A DNA stretch of 64,000 bases, taken from Desulfitobacterium chlororespirans DSM 11544. Its GTDB lineage: Bacteria; Bacillota; Desulfitobacteriia; Desulfitobacteriales; Desulfitobacteriaceae. Below are positions 1-43,708 of the stretch, piece after piece. Below the pieces are notes generated by a model. The model ran no database searches. It saw only the letters and a program-made list of their open reading frames with translations, and had not been told where the DNA came from. Location: contig NZ_FRDN01000012.1 of the NCBI RefSeq assembly GCF_900143285.1, positions 74,819 to 138,818 of the forward strand. The letters are read 5' to 3'. Every line of letters begins with the position of its first letter. Position 1 is the first letter of the stretch. The translations under genes and the position numbers were made by a program.

Positions 1-259
1 ATTTATTGCGTTAATAATAAGTACGGGTCGGTTGTTTTATAAAGGCCGGAAAAGTTCATCTGGTTGAGCATAATAAAGGCGGAAGAACTCTTCAGTGATA
101 CTGCACTTGACATTCAGCATATAGGCAGTACCGTCATTCATAAGTAATAATGAAAATTTAGTTTGTATTCTTCTTAAAATGCGAAACGGTTATGTATCTT
201 TTTGACGTAACTTTCAAGAAAGTCAACGTGGAACTGGCTAAAGCCAGATAAAAAACAAG

Positions 260-310
260 AGGCCGCTGTCAAACGGACTGTAAAGTTCGTTGAACAGGGG
301 CTTTTTTGTT
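260..310 (+). terminator. Intrinsic-terminator-like hairpin plus T-run; copy 1 of a duplicated 50-bp element
   Basis: aggccgctgtcaaacggactgtaaagttcgttgaacaggggcttttttgtt: stem gccgctg/cagggg(c) and acggac/gttcgt, then T6. It is about 94% identical to 3228-3277. Confidence 0.5.
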
Positions 311-498
311 GTCCAGCGCACTTCCCTACCAGGGTGGGAGAAATTCGGAATCGATTACGAATTTCGGATGCACCCTGATGCTTTTCAGGGATTGTGATTT
401 GAAAAAGGCCTCTCCATACGTTACAATTGGAGAGCTGGTAAGATTAACAGGCATAAGGTATAGCACACTGAGGTATCAATGTCGGCGGTAAAAATATC

Positions 499-999
499 GT
501 GAAGATGACGGAACTAAAAAAGCTGTTTTCCGACCTTGGTTTTCAAAAGGTTCAAACCTATATTCAAAGTGGAAACGTCGTGTTTGATACGGAAGATAAC
601 GCAACTCAAGCGATGCAGAAAATACAAAAGGGCTTTTCTACGGCCTTTGGCTTTGAGTGCGCGGTGATGCTGCGGACCGCCCGGGAAATGGCCGACATGG
701 TAGAGGTCCTGCCCTTTAGCGAGGGAGAAATAAACGAGGCGGTGGCGTCGAACCCTGCCGTGGAGCACCTGTATGTTTATCTGTTGGATGGGGCGGATAT
801 ACGCCAACAATTTGATGGGCTCATCTGCACCTATACCGGACGGGATCGGATGGTGCTGGGGGCAAACGAGATTTATTTGCTGTGTCACGAAAGCATCAGG
901 GACTCAAAGCTCGCAACGTCGCTAGGCAAGCTGAAGGTATCTTTAACAGCACGTAATTGGAAAACAATAAGTAAATTATATGAGATAACGAGGGAATGA
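499..999 (+). CDS. DUF1697 family protein (C-terminal ...TARNWKT motif). The N-terminus appears frameshifted; see finding.
   Basis: Internal GTG start. The in-frame upstream sequence reads TGA-GINVGGKNIVKM, which is the conserved LLRGINVGGKN motif, and the preceding frame (306..491) carries ...IRYSTLR. Confidence 0.55.
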   Translation: MKMTELKKLFSDLGFQKVQTYIQSGNVVFDTEDNATQAMQKIQKGFSTAFGFECAVMLRTAREMADMVEVLPFSEGEINEAVASNPAVEHLYVYLLDGADIRQQFDGLICTYTGRDRMVLGANEIYLLCHESIRDSKLATSLGKLKVSLTARNWKTISKLYEITRE

Positions 1000-1160
1000 A
1001 GATCGGTTTCGTTCCAACACAAAAATCTTCTCAGATAGTTGGGAATCCGAACCTTTGATTTTGGGGGACGGGTTTTGTTTTATTGCTCCTATTAATAGGG
1101 AGGACTATGTGATACACCCGATTGAAAAGTAGTCGAGAATGAAATCAAGGAGAGAACTAA

Positions 1161-1571
1161 ATGAATAATTCAAAACAAAAAATTACTACCTTCTTAATGT
1201 TTCAAGATGGCAATGCTGAAGAGGCAATGAACTTTTATATTTCGCTATTTGATAATTCTAAAATAGTGAATATTACCCGTTATGGAGCGAATGAAGCCGG
1301 TCAAGAGGGTACTGTAATGCATGCTGTATTTTCATTGAACGGGCAAGAGTACATGTGTATAGACAGCTATGTCAAGCATGAATTTACATTTACCCCTGCG
1401 ATATCCTTATATGTAACATGTGATAGTAAAGAAGAGATTGATAAGGTGTTTGAAAAGCTTTCGGAAGGCGGCCAAATCTTGATGCCCCTTGACTCTTATC
1501 CGTTTAGTGCAAGATTCGGTTGGGTAAATGATAAATACGGTGTCTCATGGCAATTAAGTTTTGAGAAGTAA
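1161..1571 (+). CDS. VOC/PhnB-like protein (3-demethylubiquinone-9 3-methyltransferase-like fold, PF06983-type)
   Basis: ITTFLMFQDGNAEEAMNFY...GWVNDKYGVSWQL motif pattern; RBS aaggagag 8 nt upstream. Confidence 0.7.
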   Translation: MNNSKQKITTFLMFQDGNAEEAMNFYISLFDNSKIVNITRYGANEAGQEGTVMHAVFSLNGQEYMCIDSYVKHEFTFTPAISLYVTCDSKEEIDKVFEKLSEGGQILMPLDSYPFSARFGWVNDKYGVSWQLSFEK

Positions 1572-1738
1572 TAATAAAAATAGTTTGGATTCCTCTTTAA
1601 ATGAGAACCCTTTTTTGCATTATAACTCTAAAGAGACAGGGCTGTTTTTTTACGGAAGTGAAAGACAGTCCTGTTTGATTTTCGGCTTGGAGTTCAAAGA
1701 ATCATTTTAGAAGATTGCGAAATACACTTCAAAACATA

Positions 1739-1781
1739 TTGACTTTTTTCGATATGATAGACATAATGAACATATCGAAAA
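1739..1781 (+). promoter_or_regulatory. Sigma-A-type promoter (ttgact-N17-cataat) overlapped by an 11-bp perfect inverted repeat, a candidate ArsR operator
   Basis: -35 ttgact 1739-1744; -10 cataat 1762-1767; IR ttttcgatatg (1746-1756) / catatcgaaaa (1771-1781). Confidence 0.5.
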
Positions 1782-1802
1782 TTTTAGATTGGAGCGTTAT
1801 GT

Positions 1803-2135
1803 ATGAAAACAAACCATTTGGAAAGCGCCAAAGTGTTCAAAGCCTTTTGCGATGAAACCCGGCTTGCCATTTTGGAAATGCTCCAAAGCGGTGAAAAATG
1901 TGCCTGTGTGCTGCTTGAAGAGGTAGAAGTGGGACAGTCCACCCTTTCCCACCATATGAAGATTCTGCTGGAAAGCGGCGTTATTTCTGCACGGAAAGAA
2001 GGCAAATGGACTTACTATTCCATTAGTGAAAATGGCAGAAAGCGTGCCTTAGTGTTGCTGCACGCCATAACTGAAACCCATATGCTCACAGGAGGAGCAA
2101 ATGAAAAGTGTTGTGAAAAGGAGAGTGTCTTATGA
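1803..2135 (+). CDS. arsR: ArsR/SmtB family metalloregulator
   Basis: HTH region with the CAC metal-binding motif (EKCACVLLEEV...TLSHHMKIL); ends 4 bp overlapping arsM. Confidence 0.8.
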   Translation: MKTNHLESAKVFKAFCDETRLAILEMLQSGEKCACVLLEEVEVGQSTLSHHMKILLESGVISARKEGKWTYYSISENGRKRALVLLHAITETHMLTGGANEKCCEKESVL

Positions 2136-3184
2136 ATGAGGTTATCGAAAATGTCAAAGAGTATTACGGCAAAGTTCTGCATAGTACAGCTGATTTGCAA
2201 AGCAAAGCCTGCTGTTGTTCGCCGGACTCAATGCCAAAGGAAGTAAAAAAAGCCCTCACTTTGATAGCAGATGAGGTTATCAACCGCTACTATGGCTGCG
2301 GCTCGCCGTTACCCCCCTTGCTTGAGGGCATGACCGTTCTTGATCTCGGATGTGGCAGTGGACGTGACGTATATGTTGCAGCTCAGCTGGTCGGTGAGTA
2401 TGGGCAGGTGATCGGCGTTGATATGACCCAGGAGCAGCTTGATGTGGCAAGAAAATATGAGGACGAACAGCGCCAGCGCTTCGGCTACGCAAAATCTAAC
2501 GTGAAATTTTTGAACGGTTATATTGAGGACTTACGCACGGTCGGAATTAGTGATTCTTCGGTGGATATAGTAATCTCGAACTGCGTTGTCAATCTTTCTC
2601 CTGATAAGGAAAAGGTCTTTGCAGAAATCTGGCGGGTATTGAAGCCGGGTGGGGAACTTTATTTCTCAGATGTATTTGCTGATCGTCGCATACCCGAATA
2701 TCTTGCGGCTGACCCGGTATTGCGCGGCGAGTGCATCGGCGGTGCATTATATTACGAGGATTTTCGTCGTATTATGCAGCGGGTTGGCTTTACCGATTTT
2801 CGTTATAAATCTATCCGAAATATAGATTTGGATAATGAGGCGATCATAGAAAAAGTGGGATTTGCAAACTTTACAGAGCGGACAGTCAGAGCCTTTAAAT
2901 TAGACGACCTGGAGGATATTTGCGAAGATTATGGACAGATTGCCGTCTATAATGGCAGCATCCCCAGCTCCCCGCATTTTTTTGATCTTGACGACCATCA
3001 CCGCTTTTTTACCGGCAAGCCGCTTTTGGTTTGCGGCAACACAACTGCCATGCTTGCCAAAACCCGCTTCGCTTCCGCATTCAGGGTAACAGGCGAGCGT
3101 TCCACCCATTACGGAGCGTTTGGAGGCTGCGGAGGAAAAAGTGAAACAAATTGTTTTGATACTGGCAGTTCATGTGGGTGCTGA
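2132..3184 (+). CDS. arsM: Arsenite S-adenosylmethionine methyltransferase (ArsM-like class I SAM MTase)
   Basis: VLDLGCGSGRD SAM motif I; conserved Cys pairs (KACCCS, GECIGG, LLVCGN); Cys-rich C-terminus; translationally coupled to arsR. Confidence 0.7.
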   Translation: MNEVIENVKEYYGKVLHSTADLQSKACCCSPDSMPKEVKKALTLIADEVINRYYGCGSPLPPLLEGMTVLDLGCGSGRDVYVAAQLVGEYGQVIGVDMTQEQLDVARKYEDEQRQRFGYAKSNVKFLNGYIEDLRTVGISDSSVDIVISNCVVNLSPDKEKVFAEIWRVLKPGGELYFSDVFADRRIPEYLAADPVLRGECIGGALYYEDFRRIMQRVGFTDFRYKSIRNIDLDNEAIIEKVGFANFTERTVRAFKLDDLEDICEDYGQIAVYNGSIPSSPHFFDLDDHHRFFTGKPLLVCGNTTAMLAKTRFASAFRVTGERSTHYGAFGGCGGKSETNCFDTGSSCGC

Positions 3185-3227
3185 TAAATAGATGTGGCAT
3201 ACATTATCCTCCGCAAAAATAATCAAT

Positions 3228-3277
3228 AGGCCGCTGTCAAACGGACTGTAAAGTCCGTTGAGCAGCGGCTTTTTGTT
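3228..3277 (+). terminator. Intrinsic terminator after arsM; copy 2 of the duplicated 50-bp element
   Basis: gccgctg-tcaa-acggac-tgtaaa-gtccgt-tgag-cagcggc followed by T5. Confidence 0.65.
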
Positions 3278-3618
3278 CCCTGATGCAACTGGCGGTCGCT
3301 AAATTGTCAAGTATCAAAATTAAGGAGGGGAGTATCACGTCAATCCGTTTCCAAGTGGGAAACAAATACCTCGATTCCGGAACTGGACAAATTGGTGTCG
3401 ATGTTCTATAACTGAACTAAGCCCGGATTTTACACAAATGCATTGACAAAAAGTCGGCATGAATGCAAGATTATAATAATAAGTCGCATCCCCTGAAATG
3501 ATGAAAACGAATATAAACGAGCGACATTGCCAAATCTGCCATCAAAGCCTGAATTGTTCTTTTTGGCAGATTTCTCATTTAATCAGGTTATAAAGATATG
3601 AAAGAAGGTTGAAGAACA

Positions 3619-4146
3619 ATGGCAGAGATCATCAAAGTTTATAAAGAACATCTGCCCTCATTGCGTTTCATTGGCAAATGCTATACTAATGCCGATAGAG
3701 TTGGTGGATTTGGTCACAAATGGGCGGAATGGTTTCAAAACGGCTGGTTTGAAGAGCTTGGAAATCTGGGCGGGGCTCCGGATATTGAAAATGGTTACCT
3801 GGGCTTGATGCGCTGCGACAGCAGTAATTTTGAAAACACTTTCGAATACTGGATTGGTCTGTTTTTTTCCTCAGATACATCTGTTCCCAGCGGCTATGAT
3901 TACATAGATTTGGACGATGGCCCCATCGGTGTATGCTGGATTAAAGGCAAAGAGGACGAGGGCGGCATCTATGGCATGCATGAGCAATGCGCTGTTAGAT
4001 TCCAGGAAAATGGTATGGGTAATTTTAAAAACGATCATGAAAACAGGGCTTATTTTTTCGAAAGATATAACTGCCCGCGATTTACCGAGAAGGATGAACA
4101 AGGCAATGTTATTTTGGACTACTGTGTCTACTTGGCAGATCTGTAA
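3619..4146 (+). CDS. GyrI-like/AraC-effector-binding-domain small-molecule-binding protein
   Basis: ~175 aa; LRFIGKCYT..YWIGLFF..GYDYIDL pattern typical of GyrI-like domains. Confidence 0.45.
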   Translation: MAEIIKVYKEHLPSLRFIGKCYTNADRVGGFGHKWAEWFQNGWFEELGNLGGAPDIENGYLGLMRCDSSNFENTFEYWIGLFFSSDTSVPSGYDYIDLDDGPIGVCWIKGKEDEGGIYGMHEQCAVRFQENGMGNFKNDHENRAYFFERYNCPRFTEKDEQGNVILDYCVYLADL

Positions 4147-4181
4147 TCTTTACTTTGATGGCTGCAAGGGAGAGATTGTTT

Positions 4182-5000
4182 GTGAGAATAAAGTGGCTTC
4201 CTATAACTATACTGTTATGCTCGCTTCTGCTGACAGGCTGTTCCAGCCAACCTCTGCAGGAACCCGAAAAATGGGCAATGGTTGAAGAGAAAGTCATGAC
4301 ATTCTCAGACGGGGAGAGCGTCAACTTATGGAGAAGAGGCCCCTTTGGGCATGCTGCCTACAAACTTTCGGATGAAACGACACTATTGCTCGTTCAGGAC
4401 CCAACCGGCCCGGCTAATGTTTATGTAGGTGGAGTGGAGAGTTTCGATGATTTGAGCGAACCTGCCCAGAGAGCTGTTGCTGCATTTTATGAGGAACAGG
4501 GCTTGCTCTACAACATCCCATCTGAACTGGAAAATGCCTATGCTGAATATCTGGCTTGCCAAGACAAGGGGACATTATTCCGTGAGCATTACATCAGTCA
4601 GGATATTGTTCCCACCGCGTCTAACGACAGCATAATATGCTTTCTTACATCGGTCATCCTTCCCATTAATGGGCAAATGGCCCAGGAAGTTCATTTAGGT
4701 GCGGTGTTCAGCCGGGAAACCGGAGAGGTGTTGAATAACTGGGAATTGTTCTCTTTACCGGAGGGCGAAGCACGGCAACGGCTTTTAGACACATTTGATA
4801 TTGGGGCTCCCGCTTTGCGGACTGAAATGCAAGCTGCATTGAAGCCGGAGTACATTATTTTGTTCCCCGATAATTTGGATGTTACATTTCCACGAGGAAC
4901 CCTGCCAAGCCAGGAAGACAGCTATAGTATAGGGATAAGCTATGACGAACTCCAAGGAGTGATTCAGACTTGGGCAATTCCTAATGCGGACGGAACATGA
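4182..5000 (+). CDS. Lipoprotein (signal peptide plus lipobox LLTGC), function unknown
   Basis: GTG start with RBS aagggagag 7 nt upstream; VRIKWLPITILLCSLLLTGCSS. Confidence 0.55.
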   Translation: MRIKWLPITILLCSLLLTGCSSQPLQEPEKWAMVEEKVMTFSDGESVNLWRRGPFGHAAYKLSDETTLLLVQDPTGPANVYVGGVESFDDLSEPAQRAVAAFYEEQGLLYNIPSELENAYAEYLACQDKGTLFREHYISQDIVPTASNDSIICFLTSVILPINGQMAQEVHLGAVFSRETGEVLNNWELFSLPEGEARQRLLDTFDIGAPALRTEMQAALKPEYIILFPDNLDVTFPRGTLPSQEDSYSIGISYDELQGVIQTWAIPNADGT

Positions 5001-5069: not shown

Positions 5070-5098
5070 TTGACAGGCTTCACGTGCAAAAGTATAAT
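5070..5098 (+). promoter_or_regulatory. Consensus sigma-A promoter of recA (ttgaca-N17-tataat)
   Basis: ttgaca 5070-5075, tataat 5093-5098. Confidence 0.65.
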
Positions 5099-5104
5099 GG
5101 AAAT

Positions 5105-5118
5105 CGAACAAATGTTTG
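5105..5118 (+). promoter_or_regulatory. LexA/DinR SOS box (Cheo box GAAC-N4-GTTC, one mismatch)
   Basis: cgaacaaatgtttg lies immediately downstream of the recA -10. Confidence 0.5.
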
Positions 5119-5166: not shown

Positions 5167-6207
5167 ATGGCCGGTAACGATAAATTAAAAGCCCTGGATG
5201 CGGCTTTAAGTCAGATTGAAAAGCAATTTGGAAAAGGGTCGATTATGAGATTGGGGGAGGCTTCTGCCAAAATGGCAGTGGAAGTGATTCCGACAGGTTG
5301 CCTGGCCATTGATATAGCCCTTGGAGTAGGTGGAGTGCCTCGAGGACGTGTTATAGAAATCTATGGGCCTGAGTCATCCGGTAAGACCACCGTCGCCTTG
5401 CATATTGCGGCAGAAGCCCAGAAGCTGGGCGGTGTAGCCGCTTTTATCGATGCGGAGCATGCTCTCGATCCAGTCTATGCCAAGGCCTTAGGGGTCAACA
5501 TCGACAATCTTCTCGTATCCCAACCGGATACAGGTGAGCAGGCACTGGAGATTTGCGAAGCCTTAGTGCGCAGTGGGGCCATCGACGTCATCATCATTGA
5601 CTCTGTGGCGGCTCTTGTCCCTCGAGCAGAGATTGAAGGGGAAATGGGAGATTCTCATGTGGGCTTACACGCTCGCTTAATGTCTCAAGCCCTGAGAAAA
5701 TTGACAGGTGCCATCAGCAAGAGTCATACATGTGTCATTTTTATTAACCAGATTCGGGAAAAAGTAGGAATTATGTTTGGTAATCCAGAGACCACAACCG
5801 GTGGACGTGCTTTGAAATTCTATGCTTCCGTCCGTCTGGAAGTACGCCGTCAGGATACCTTGAAACAAGGTCAGGATATGATTGGCAACCGTACCAAAGT
5901 CAAGGTTGTTAAGAATAAAGTGGCTCCGCCCTTTAAACAAGCCGAATTTGACATTATGTACGGAGAAGGTATTTCCCGTGAAGGCAGCATGGTGGATGTG
6001 GGCGCTGAGTTAGATATCATTAATAAGTCCGGAGCTTGGTACTCCTATAAAGGTGAGCGCTTAGGTCAGGGAAGAGAGAATGTCAAGGAGTTTTTAAAGA
6101 AGAACCCTGAGATTGCCGCCGAAATCGAACAAGGGATCCGGGCCAGCATTGCTAATGTAAGCGCTCCGGTTGCCGAGGATGTCCAAGAGGAGCCGGAAGA
6201 CGTCTAA
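5167..6207 (+). CDS. recA: Recombinase RecA
   Basis: GSIMRLGE, Walker [18 protein letters not shown]; full-length 346 aa. Confidence 0.97.
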
Positions 6208-8808: not shown

Positions 8809-8934
8809 TAAGTAACAGGAAGGTTGAAATCATCAGGCAGGACTTTATCGGAAATTGACGAATTATTATGGAGTGATGAGAAGCAGTAAATATTCAGAGC
8901 AAATAGTCAGTATGATAAGAAAGAGGATGACACT

Positions 8935-42820: not shown

Positions 42821-43450
42821 GTGGAAAGCTATGTTACAGTCTTCGAAAGTTCAACATGGGAGCAAGTCATTGAGAAATCCCGTTTTATTGGAGTTGTTCA
42901 CCCTGTGAAGAACGTAGAAGAGGTGGAGCAAAGACTTCATGATATCCGTCAAAATTACCCTAATGCCCGGCACTATGTTTATGCCTATCGTTTGTATCAA
43001 GGAAAACTGGAAAAATCCACCGACGACGGAGAGCCCCAGGGCACCGGTGGCCGACCGGTGCTTGACGTTTTGCAATATCGTCAGATCTGGGATGTACTCA
43101 TTGTGGTCATTCGGTATTTTGGAGGCGTTCTCCTTGGCGCGGGAGGATTGACACGAGCCTATGGAGGGACAGCACGCCAACTGATGGATAAGGCCTCCAT
43201 AGGGCGGTTGGTACCCCATCTTATCTATGAGATTGAAGCAGGCTATGATTGGTATGAACCGTTGAAATATTGGTTTAAACAGTTTTCCTGGGCCACCGGC
43301 GAGGAGGAATTTCTGGCTACGGTCAAGCTTCAAGTGTATATTCCCTGGGAGGAGAATCAGCGCTTTAGAGAGTGGCTGGCTGATTTTGCCGATCAGAAAA
43401 TTGTTCCCAGGGAAATAGGGAATACCTTGTGCCCGGAGCAATCAAATTAA
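42821..43450 (+). CDS. yigZ: IMPACT/YigZ family protein (UPF0029)
   Basis: DDGEPQGTGGRPVL signature. Confidence 0.85.
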   Translation: MESYVTVFESSTWEQVIEKSRFIGVVHPVKNVEEVEQRLHDIRQNYPNARHYVYAYRLYQGKLEKSTDDGEPQGTGGRPVLDVLQYRQIWDVLIVVIRYFGGVLLGAGGLTRAYGGTARQLMDKASIGRLVPHLIYEIEAGYDWYEPLKYWFKQFSWATGEEEFLATVKLQVYIPWEENQRFREWLADFADQKIVPREIGNTLCPEQSN

Positions 43451-43708
43451 TATTTGAGAGAAGGGGCCGCAGCTCAATGAACTTTAATATTCATGGGGCT
43501 GCGGTCTTTTTCCTCAAATTCCCAAACGTTTGGGAATTTGAGTCTGTACGAATCGTCAGACTATTTTTAATATAAGAAAAAAATAACTTTCACTTGTCAA
43601 TGCATTTGTTTTCACATATAATATAACTAAAGCTAGTGCATTAAATAACGAAGTTTAGATAGAACACCTTGTCACTACTTAAATAACCAAGTGGAGGAGG
43701 CTGAAATT

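Follow-up and report, generated by a model that had tools for sequence, protein, structure and literature searches.

A terminator-like hairpin element of ∼50 nucleotides (T) flanks an arsenic methylation gene block of Desulfitobacterium chlororespirans DSM 11544 on both sides, and this arrangement is an old, fixed, lineage-specific duplication scar at the boundary of acquired DNA. The DNA analyzed (the window) is a stretch of 64,000 nucleotides (nt) from contig NZ_FRDN01000012.1. Its left copy (TL or T-left) lies at positions 260–310 and its right copy (TR or T-right) at 3228–3277, both on the + strand; this pair had been reported in a preliminary description of the window. Two genes recur next to T, namely a cshA-like DEAD-box helicase gene (H) and the gene of an XRE-type membrane regulator (X), with their remnants denoted H′ and X′, and a third copy of T (T0) lies to the left of the window. 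We favor, with a probability of about 0.6, the explanation that T is an intrinsic terminator whose duplication accompanied the arrival of the block at the helicase/X junction, that both copies were kept by selection, and that T later became an anchor for recombination. A recent mobile cassette is not supported.

A degenerate 41-mer of the element matched the window exactly twice (261–301 and 3229–3269, both on the + strand). In 100 dinucleotide-preserving shuffles of the window no match arose, and none is expected by chance. Pattern search and alignment agreed with the reported difference between the core 50 nt of TL and TR, which amounts to three substitutions and one T. A repeat finder extended the pair to 57 nt (250–306 vs. 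3218–3274, 89% identity) and returned it as the sole long repeat family of the window, which holds just these two strong copies. In pairwise alignments the similarity ended at the 57-nt limits; beyond ∼57 nt, local alignments of the two left flanks and of the two right flanks scored like shuffled sequence. The 43-nt spacer before TR, considered as a decayed helicase end, aligned no better than shuffles and was rejected as such, and the same result disposed of a relationship between the sequences 3′ of TL and TR. TL and TR are true paralogues of one terminator-like element, and not unrelated terminators, as had been proposed.

Both copies fold into a ∼10-bp outer stem, a 2 × 2 internal loop, an 8-bp inner stem and a GUAA loop, followed by U5–6, which bears out the two-step hairpin plus T-run of the earlier account. 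The + strand RNA folded with −28.1 kcal/mol for TL (z −5.9) and −33.8 kcal/mol for TR (z −8.3), and folding of the − strand was weaker (−16.7 and −27.2 kcal/mol, respectively). Across eight T alleles the energies ranged from −27 to −45 kcal/mol (z −5 to −12), 0 of 200 shuffles folded equally well, and in each allele the last stem base is followed at once by T5–6 and then GTT. T-left (250–310, +) comprises an A-rich lead, the hairpin and the T-run, and would be the terminator of the helicase gene in relatives. T-right (3218–3277, +) lies 43 nt past the arsM stop codon, and T0 and the T-left of relatives lie 9–12 nt past the helicase stop codon. The proposal that each copy directly follows the end of a + strand gene thus held for TR, but not for TL, which in the window is preceded only by a 33-nt helicase remnant and by no intact gene. 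An Rfam search with T returned only sub-threshold eukaryotic families.

By its sequence T has a stable stem-loop, a 3′ U-tract and a position after a stop codon on the same strand, and it is predicted to be a Rho-independent (intrinsic) terminator that exists only in the D. hafniense/D. chlororespirans lineage. It resembles known intrinsic terminators, among them the bidirectional type that has an A-tract on the upstream side and a U-tract on the downstream side, in its GC-rich stem-loop, its GNRA-type loop, its U5–6 run and an upstream A-rich stretch complementary to the U-run, as well as in its location 9–43 nt past stop codons in gene orientation and in a fold kept across alleles. It differs from them in an unusually long two-step stem of ∼18 bp, which in one allele is a 20-bp perfect palindrome, and in that near-identical paralogous copies of it stand behind genes unrelated to each other; the terminator activity of T is a prediction.

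The stem was compared over its 18 pairs in eight distinct T alleles, and 95.8% of the pair cells were paired. Nine of the 18 pairs were invariant, six varied on one side only, and three were broken in some alleles. All six varying positions showed only G-U wobble changes, which preserve pairing in the + strand RNA alone. When events were counted by hand, six pairing-preserving transitions stood against one breaking change (about p = 0.06). The wobble pattern is suggestive of selection for the hairpin in + strand RNA, which would be expected for a terminator of + strand genes. Individual alleles departed from the window copies: the 5′ arm of the L009 copy contains an additional C that turns the G-G mismatch of TL into a bulge, and in locus L017 T is a perfect 42-nt palindrome.

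The left neighborhood was read from L005, a Logan contig of the same sequencing run that was found through an exact protein match to the DUF1697 open reading frame. It reaches 9.5 kb further left than the window and matches window positions 1–1220 base for base (L005 9503–10722, 100% identity). Its genes are rimO, pgsA, an ftsH-like gene, yjbR, cinA, the intact cshA-like DEAD-box helicase gene and X. T0 was found at L005 8796–8836, ∼0.7 kb before window position 1 and with two mismatches to the pattern, so that the genome has three copies of T in three flank combinations. T0 lies directly after the helicase stop codon and runs on its right side into the X leader (GATGCAACTGCCGGTTGCTAAATTGTCAAG...) and then the intact X gene. 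TL is preceded by H′ (219–251, +), 33 nt that duplicate the final 10 codons and the stop codon of the helicase gene, and is followed by unrelated sequence that runs into merR. TR has arsM on its left, and on its right the start of the X leader (3278–3311, +), which is the same sequence after T0 and after every T-right, and then the deleted X remnant. Window positions 219–307 were 91% identical over 89 nt to the intact helicase end plus T0 (L005 8754–8842), and 97% (DCB-2) and 94% (L009) identical to the helicase end plus T-left of relatives.

The order in D. chlororespirans is H-T0-X-...-H′-TL-block-TR-X′. The shared flanks show that (i) left flank, T and right flank are continuous at T0 and split around the block; and (ii) with T0 and the duplicated helicase end, this genome contains a block-free H-T-X junction as well as the split site. 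The view of the repeats as a duplication or insertion boundary was right in kind, but the insertion is not recent or strain-specific, the bracketing being common to D. hafniense strains. That T0 is a visible product of a TL × TR crossover was considered and found not to be demonstrable, since its combination of 3′-arm alleles also occurs in the T-left of Y51 and in L017.

For comparison we used the loci of ArsM and X homologues (DCB-2, Y51, DP7, LOCK01, GCA_000378805, European Nucleotide Archive (ENA) metagenome contigs and VSSQ01000079). ArsM homologues of 94–97% identity occur in D. hafniense, and the H-T-block-T arrangement was present in DCB-2, Y51, DP7, LOCK01, GCA_000378805 and two ENA contigs. 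The common order is cinA, helicase, T-left, (GPP34), merR, DUF1697, phnB, arsR, arsM, T-right, X or an X remnant, then (orf131, PadR/DUF4180, hydrolase), GyrI-like, lipoprotein and recA. Both copies of T were present in every retrieved D. hafniense-group locus that has the helicase and the block. Since DCB-2, Y51, DP7, GCA_000378805 and the metagenome contigs share the bracketing and the gene order, the ars genes are syntenic in all close relatives; the proposed check for presence or absence of the segment among them found the block in each. Strains differ inside the block by deletions and small insertions: in Y51-type loci phnB is missing entirely and DUF1697 for the most part, and a GPP34 gene is present; DCB-2 lacks a short stretch where DUF1697 meets phnB; and the X remnant of the window recurs in L009-type loci. 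Just 3′ of T-left, Y51-type loci (L002 1–85) also contain ∼12 tandem 7-nt units (GTAAGTA or GTAAATA), which adjoin the GPP34-family gene that the window lacks.

Five more distant Desulfitobacteriaceae loci (L003/L004, L019/L020 and L021) have cinA and the helicase gene, without T and without the block. Three different hairpins, unrelated to T, follow their helicase genes, and 3′ of the hairpin come recA directly (L003/L004), terC and then recA (L019/L020), or other genes (L021). The presence of T and the block throughout the hafniense/chlororespirans group and their absence from distant relatives indicate that they are lineage-specific and older than the divergence of the strains. We also observed that the helicase–recA interval is a variable slot in the Desulfitobacteriaceae, which is empty, holds terC, or holds 5–9 kb of accessory genes (hafniense group).

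Homologues of the arsR-arsM pair were found in two unrelated contexts (def...priA and scpB...GH25), at 81 and 77% nucleotide identity, and there the homology runs from shortly before arsR to the arsM stop codon. Because it ends exactly at that codon, T did not come with arsRM, and this origin was rejected. Judged from these matches, the cargo of the block is composite, as the arsR-arsM pair occurs alone elsewhere. A deeper T-X unit was likewise rejected: a 69%-identical X homologue beside ppdK keeps the leader with its GCAAC...GTTGC inverted repeat and has another terminator upstream.

Under the favored explanation, the ancestor of the lineage would have carried T between the helicase gene and the X leader. 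The block merR-DUF1697-phnB-arsR-arsM would then have been placed at this junction, leaving ∼57 nt of T on each side. The mechanism that we prefer is recombination anchored on T or T-X together with one illegitimate join, for example Campbell-type or homology-facilitated illegitimate recombination of DNA already carrying T; a dedicated site-specific recombinase is less likely. T-left would end the helicase transcript ahead of the block and T-right the arsenic-inducible arsRM transcript ahead of X, and selection would keep both copies because each would be needed. The direct repeats could then provide homology for further rearrangements, and in D. chlororespirans a further event would have put T0 and an intact, divergent X allele between H and the 33-nt helicase remnant. 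The locus resembles described cases of such recombination in having one homologous side per rearrangement (T, H-T or T-X), a patchwork on the other side (a g|H′ joint at 218/219 and a 2-nt microhomology at 469/470), and an imported X allele that is ∼12% divergent; the mechanism here is read from its end products only, and no donor genome was identified.

Several observations count against this explanation or weaken it. No double (compensatory) stem change was present among the eight T alleles, so that the case for structural selection on T draws on wobble-only changes. No genome with H-T-X and without the block was found, all retrieved D. hafniense genomes being occupied; the block-free H-T0-X junction was seen in a single genome, which also has an occupied copy next to it, and distant relatives are without T entirely. 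As no presence/absence polymorphism of the block was found, insertion is deduced from the logic of the flanks. In one locus variant (L017/L018), where no helicase gene is close by, the order is a truncated histidine-kinase gene, arsRM, T, X, GyrI-like, lipoprotein and recA, and the arsRM-T-X order without H means that T could originally have belonged to an arsM-X junction. The order of events could also be another one, with TL or with TR as the older copy or with a duplication of T as the first step. An exact 20-mer of T had 0 matches in species-representative genomes; DCB-2 and Y51 contain this 20-mer, so that the result is silent on dispersal within them. There is, finally, a small chance that a look-alike terminator of the window hints at a loose terminator family. 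It lies at 43465–43513 (+; −37.9 kcal/mol) after a gene ending at 43450, and its 5′ arm GGCCGCAGCTCAATGAACT resembles that of T (GGCCGCTGTCAAACGGACT), with the common start GGCCGCWG(N)TCAA.

Of the other explanations, the one we take most seriously, although we consider it unlikely, is that T is the attL/attR core of a decayed integrative element, which a tyrosine or serine recombinase would have brought to the helicase 3′ end and its terminator. The block would then be a recombinase-less remnant like a cis-mobilizable element (CIME), and the D. chlororespirans arrangement a tandem accretion. Direct repeats (57 nt at 89% identity; for T0 and TL, helicase end included, 89 nt at 91% identity) do enclose accessory genes where a conserved gene ends, T0 plus the duplicated 33-nt helicase end resemble a tandem accretion with a replacement 3′ end, and the H–recA interval varies across the family, as in known att-bounded islets and CIME remnants. 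With such islets the T locus shares direct repeats, here of ∼57–89 nt, around accessory genes that come right after a housekeeping gene. No integrase, recombinase, resolvase, transposase or excisionase, or remnant of one, was found in or beside the element in the Pfam annotations of every called gene of six locus variants (families checked: Phage_integrase, Resolvase, rve and DDE), and none of the close relatives retrieved shows an empty site. Throughout the species group the block is fixed, and the repeat here is the terminator itself and does not lie inside a tRNA or coding region. The extra D. chlororespirans segment is just ∼0.9 kb, with one regulator gene and fragments, and its right junction is a patchwork typical of illegitimate joining. 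T flanks nothing else in viral or metagenome collections, and a plasmid or phage origin of the block was rejected: neither plasmids nor phages were found to carry it, and their matches were limited to distant ones of phnB and arsR.

Somewhat less probable again is that T belongs to a dispersed family of palindromes borne by terminators or of the repetitive extragenic palindromic (REP) type, with the ars-linked copies close together by chance or by local spread. Like REP sequences and bacterial interspersed mosaic elements, T is an extragenic imperfect palindrome at gene ends, a possible terminator and recombination substrate, and the look-alike hairpin at 43465–43513 shares its 5′-arm pattern. 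Against a covariance model built from the eight T alleles (R1), however, that hairpin scored 25 bits (E about 3e-4), the locus copies scored 77–87 bits, and everything else in ∼350 kb of Desulfitobacteriaceae sequence stayed at ≤25 bits. The third copy on L005 bears on the question of further copies raised at the outset, and strong copies in these related loci were confined to this locus. The exact 20-mer, absent from other species representatives, had no match in viral contigs and one in metagenome contigs, which is the same locus. In all sequence searched, T is thus not the common dispersed terminator repeat that would have spoken against a boundary; two or three copies at one locus, with no RAYT gene seen, set it apart there from REP families. 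The flank sharing of T0, TL and TR, moreover, is predicted by a single split site and not by independent dispersal.

Two readings that make the hairpin itself a mobile device are very improbable. In one, which has marginally more to commend it, the palindrome, long and nearly perfect, would be the site of a hairpin-recognizing recombinase encoded elsewhere in the Desulfitobacterium genomes, which would capture and shuffle promoter-bearing blocks at the helicase/recA slot; if true, this would be an integron-like cassette platform in Firmicutes without an adjacent integrase, and the three flank-swapped copies would be its footprint. In the other, the hairpins are the ends of an IS200/IS605-type palindrome-associated transposable element (PATE) or of an integron-like cassette site. 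Both cargo ends do have similar sub-terminal hairpins in direct orientation, without a target-site duplication, and the perfect palindrome of L017 contains GTTCAAC...GTTGAAC, which fits both attC core motifs (RYYYAAC ... GTTRRRY). The other seven alleles, in contrast, read GTCAAAC and have no attC-like motif, T at ∼42 nt is too short for an attC site (at least 57 nt, with extrahelical bases and a nearby IntI), and the block occupies one fixed site in all strains. Unlike a transposon end, which should be absent from the empty site, the hairpin persists at the block-free H-T0-X junction, and no gene for TnpA (the Y1 transposase), RAYT or IntI lies near the locus in the variants examined.

It is hardly credible that the repeat stems from misassembly or that the two copies resemble each other by chance. 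The short-read contigs L007 and L008 end within T, but both copies recur in the finished genomes of DCB-2 (CP001336) and Y51 (AP008230) as well as in several draft genomes and in metagenome assemblies made independently; where the window overlaps with the Logan contig the two are identical, and chance matches are not expected. The preferred explanation, duplication of a terminator at block placement, makes the locus an example of a terminator hairpin duplicated at the edge of an acquired block, whose two copies would insulate the neighbors and later offer a homology anchor. As a genome scar it adds one more case to a known kind; it is not a new mobile element, system or mechanism. The duplication also accounts for the breaks of D. 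hafniense short-read assemblies at this locus: L007 and L008 stop after ∼30 nt of T, where the two copies are identical. The Logan assembly of D. chlororespirans breaks at another place, inside phnB (ends of L001 and L005, window 1202–1220).

The extra segment of D. chlororespirans begins with X, which spans L005 8946–9569 and encodes a 207-aa XRE-type helix-turn-helix regulator with a membrane domain (Pfam HTH_3 and HTH_19); the window opens with its final 67 nt (1–67, +). The encoded protein has 100% identity to one listed at NCBI for Desulfitobacterium chlororespirans. Between X and H′ lies what is tentatively a patchwork of fragments (66–218, +). Positions 66–141 resemble, weakly, an internal fragment of a GrpB-like protein (DIQHIGST; Pfam GrpB E = 0.13), and the 46 nt at 142–187 are, again tentatively, ∼85% similar by BLAST to the 3′ flank of phnB (L009 9439–9482). 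X′ (3312–3410, +) is the remnant of the second X gene and has two internal deletions, which are identical in D. hafniense GCA_000378805 and in two metagenome contigs; the X pseudogene is therefore older than the split of those lineages. T0-X and TR-X′ were ∼88% identical, no closer than T0-X is to the DCB-2, Y51 or L017 alleles. Given this divergence and the deletions that X′ shares with L009-type strains, the intact X is no recent duplicate of X′, and a recent tandem duplication was discarded. H was 91–99% identical to the D. hafniense gene along its whole length, and import by a crossover inside the helicase gene was rejected because identity does not drop along it. The simplest reading is that a divergent H-T-X-type allele was acquired through a homologous anchor at the helicase end/T and one illegitimate join; alternatively, an older tandem duplication may have been lost from the other strains.

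The X leader contains an inverted repeat, GCAACTGNNGGTTGC (L005 ∼8852–8866; L023 ∼4905–4920; window 3285–3299), which is a candidate X operator. It is kept even before the 69%-identical X homologue in another genus-level context, and ahead of the X remnant of the window (3285–3299) it is mutated to GTCGC.

Pfam and NCBIfam confirmed the genes reported between the copies of T, an ars block with a vicinal oxygen chelate (VOC) protein that is absent from distant relatives. A leader conserved in all hafniense-group loci follows T-left (311–410, +), with a promoter-like site at 399–427 in this region, and leads into a merR 5′ remnant (411–469, +; Pfam MerR E = 9e-4; 91.5% match to L002 827–885). 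The small merR-family gene is intact in DCB-2 and Y51 (86–87 aa), and in L009 it is separately broken by a 2-nt insertion. Relative to L009 (8083–8342), the window has a 260-bp deletion with its junction at 469/470 and a 2-nt microhomology (CA), which removes the 3′ part of merR and the first DUF1697 codons and fuses the merR fragment to DUF1697. The DUF1697 gene (470–999, +) has lost its first seven codons (183 aa in L009), and its longest remaining open reading frame is 499–999. The gene inside the left copy is disrupted, as had been noticed, but its 5′ truncation is due to this separate deletion and has no tie to the boundary. For annotation, the helicase end, X′, the merR fragment and the truncated DUF1697 of D. 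chlororespirans are remnants and not genes to call.

The phnB gene (1161–1571, +) encodes a PhnB-like VOC-fold protein (PF06983) and is AT-rich. A shift in base composition, one of the points proposed for checking, was confined to it (36% GC), arsRM and DUF1697 being genome-like at ∼47% GC. A promoter-like site (TTGACT-17-CATAAT; 1739–1779, +), read directly from the sequence, precedes arsR and is overlapped by a 9-nt inverted repeat, TTCGATATG (1748–1756) and CATATCGAA (1771–1779), which is likely the ArsR operator. In arsRM modules of unrelated contexts the promoter region is conserved from about 1731–1777 onward. The arsR gene (1803–2135, +) encodes an ArsR/SmtB metalloregulator (Pfam HTH_5, 4.7e-14; NCBIfam NF033788, 85.8 bits, above the cut-off) and overlaps by 4 nt the gene of an arsM-like S-adenosylmethionine-dependent arsenite methyltransferase (2132–3184, +; Methyltransf_31, 5.7e-33, and related Pfam families), and the pair has the make-up of an arsR-arsM arsenic methylation module. 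The best NCBIfam match of ArsM was arsenite methyltransferase NF008823, with 205.6 bits, below the cut-off of 263. Its cysteines at 27–29, 56, 151 and 201 have the spacing of what we take to be the conserved ArsM cysteines.

The conserved right-hand neighbors are the genes of a GyrI-like protein (3619–4146, +) and a lipoprotein (4155–5000, +), and recA (5167–6207, +). The recA promoter region (5070–5118) contains a perfect TTGACA-17-TATAAT and, after it, a Cheo/LexA-type box, CGAACAAATGTTTG (5105–5118), which is kept in the distant Desulfitobacterium loci L003/L004.

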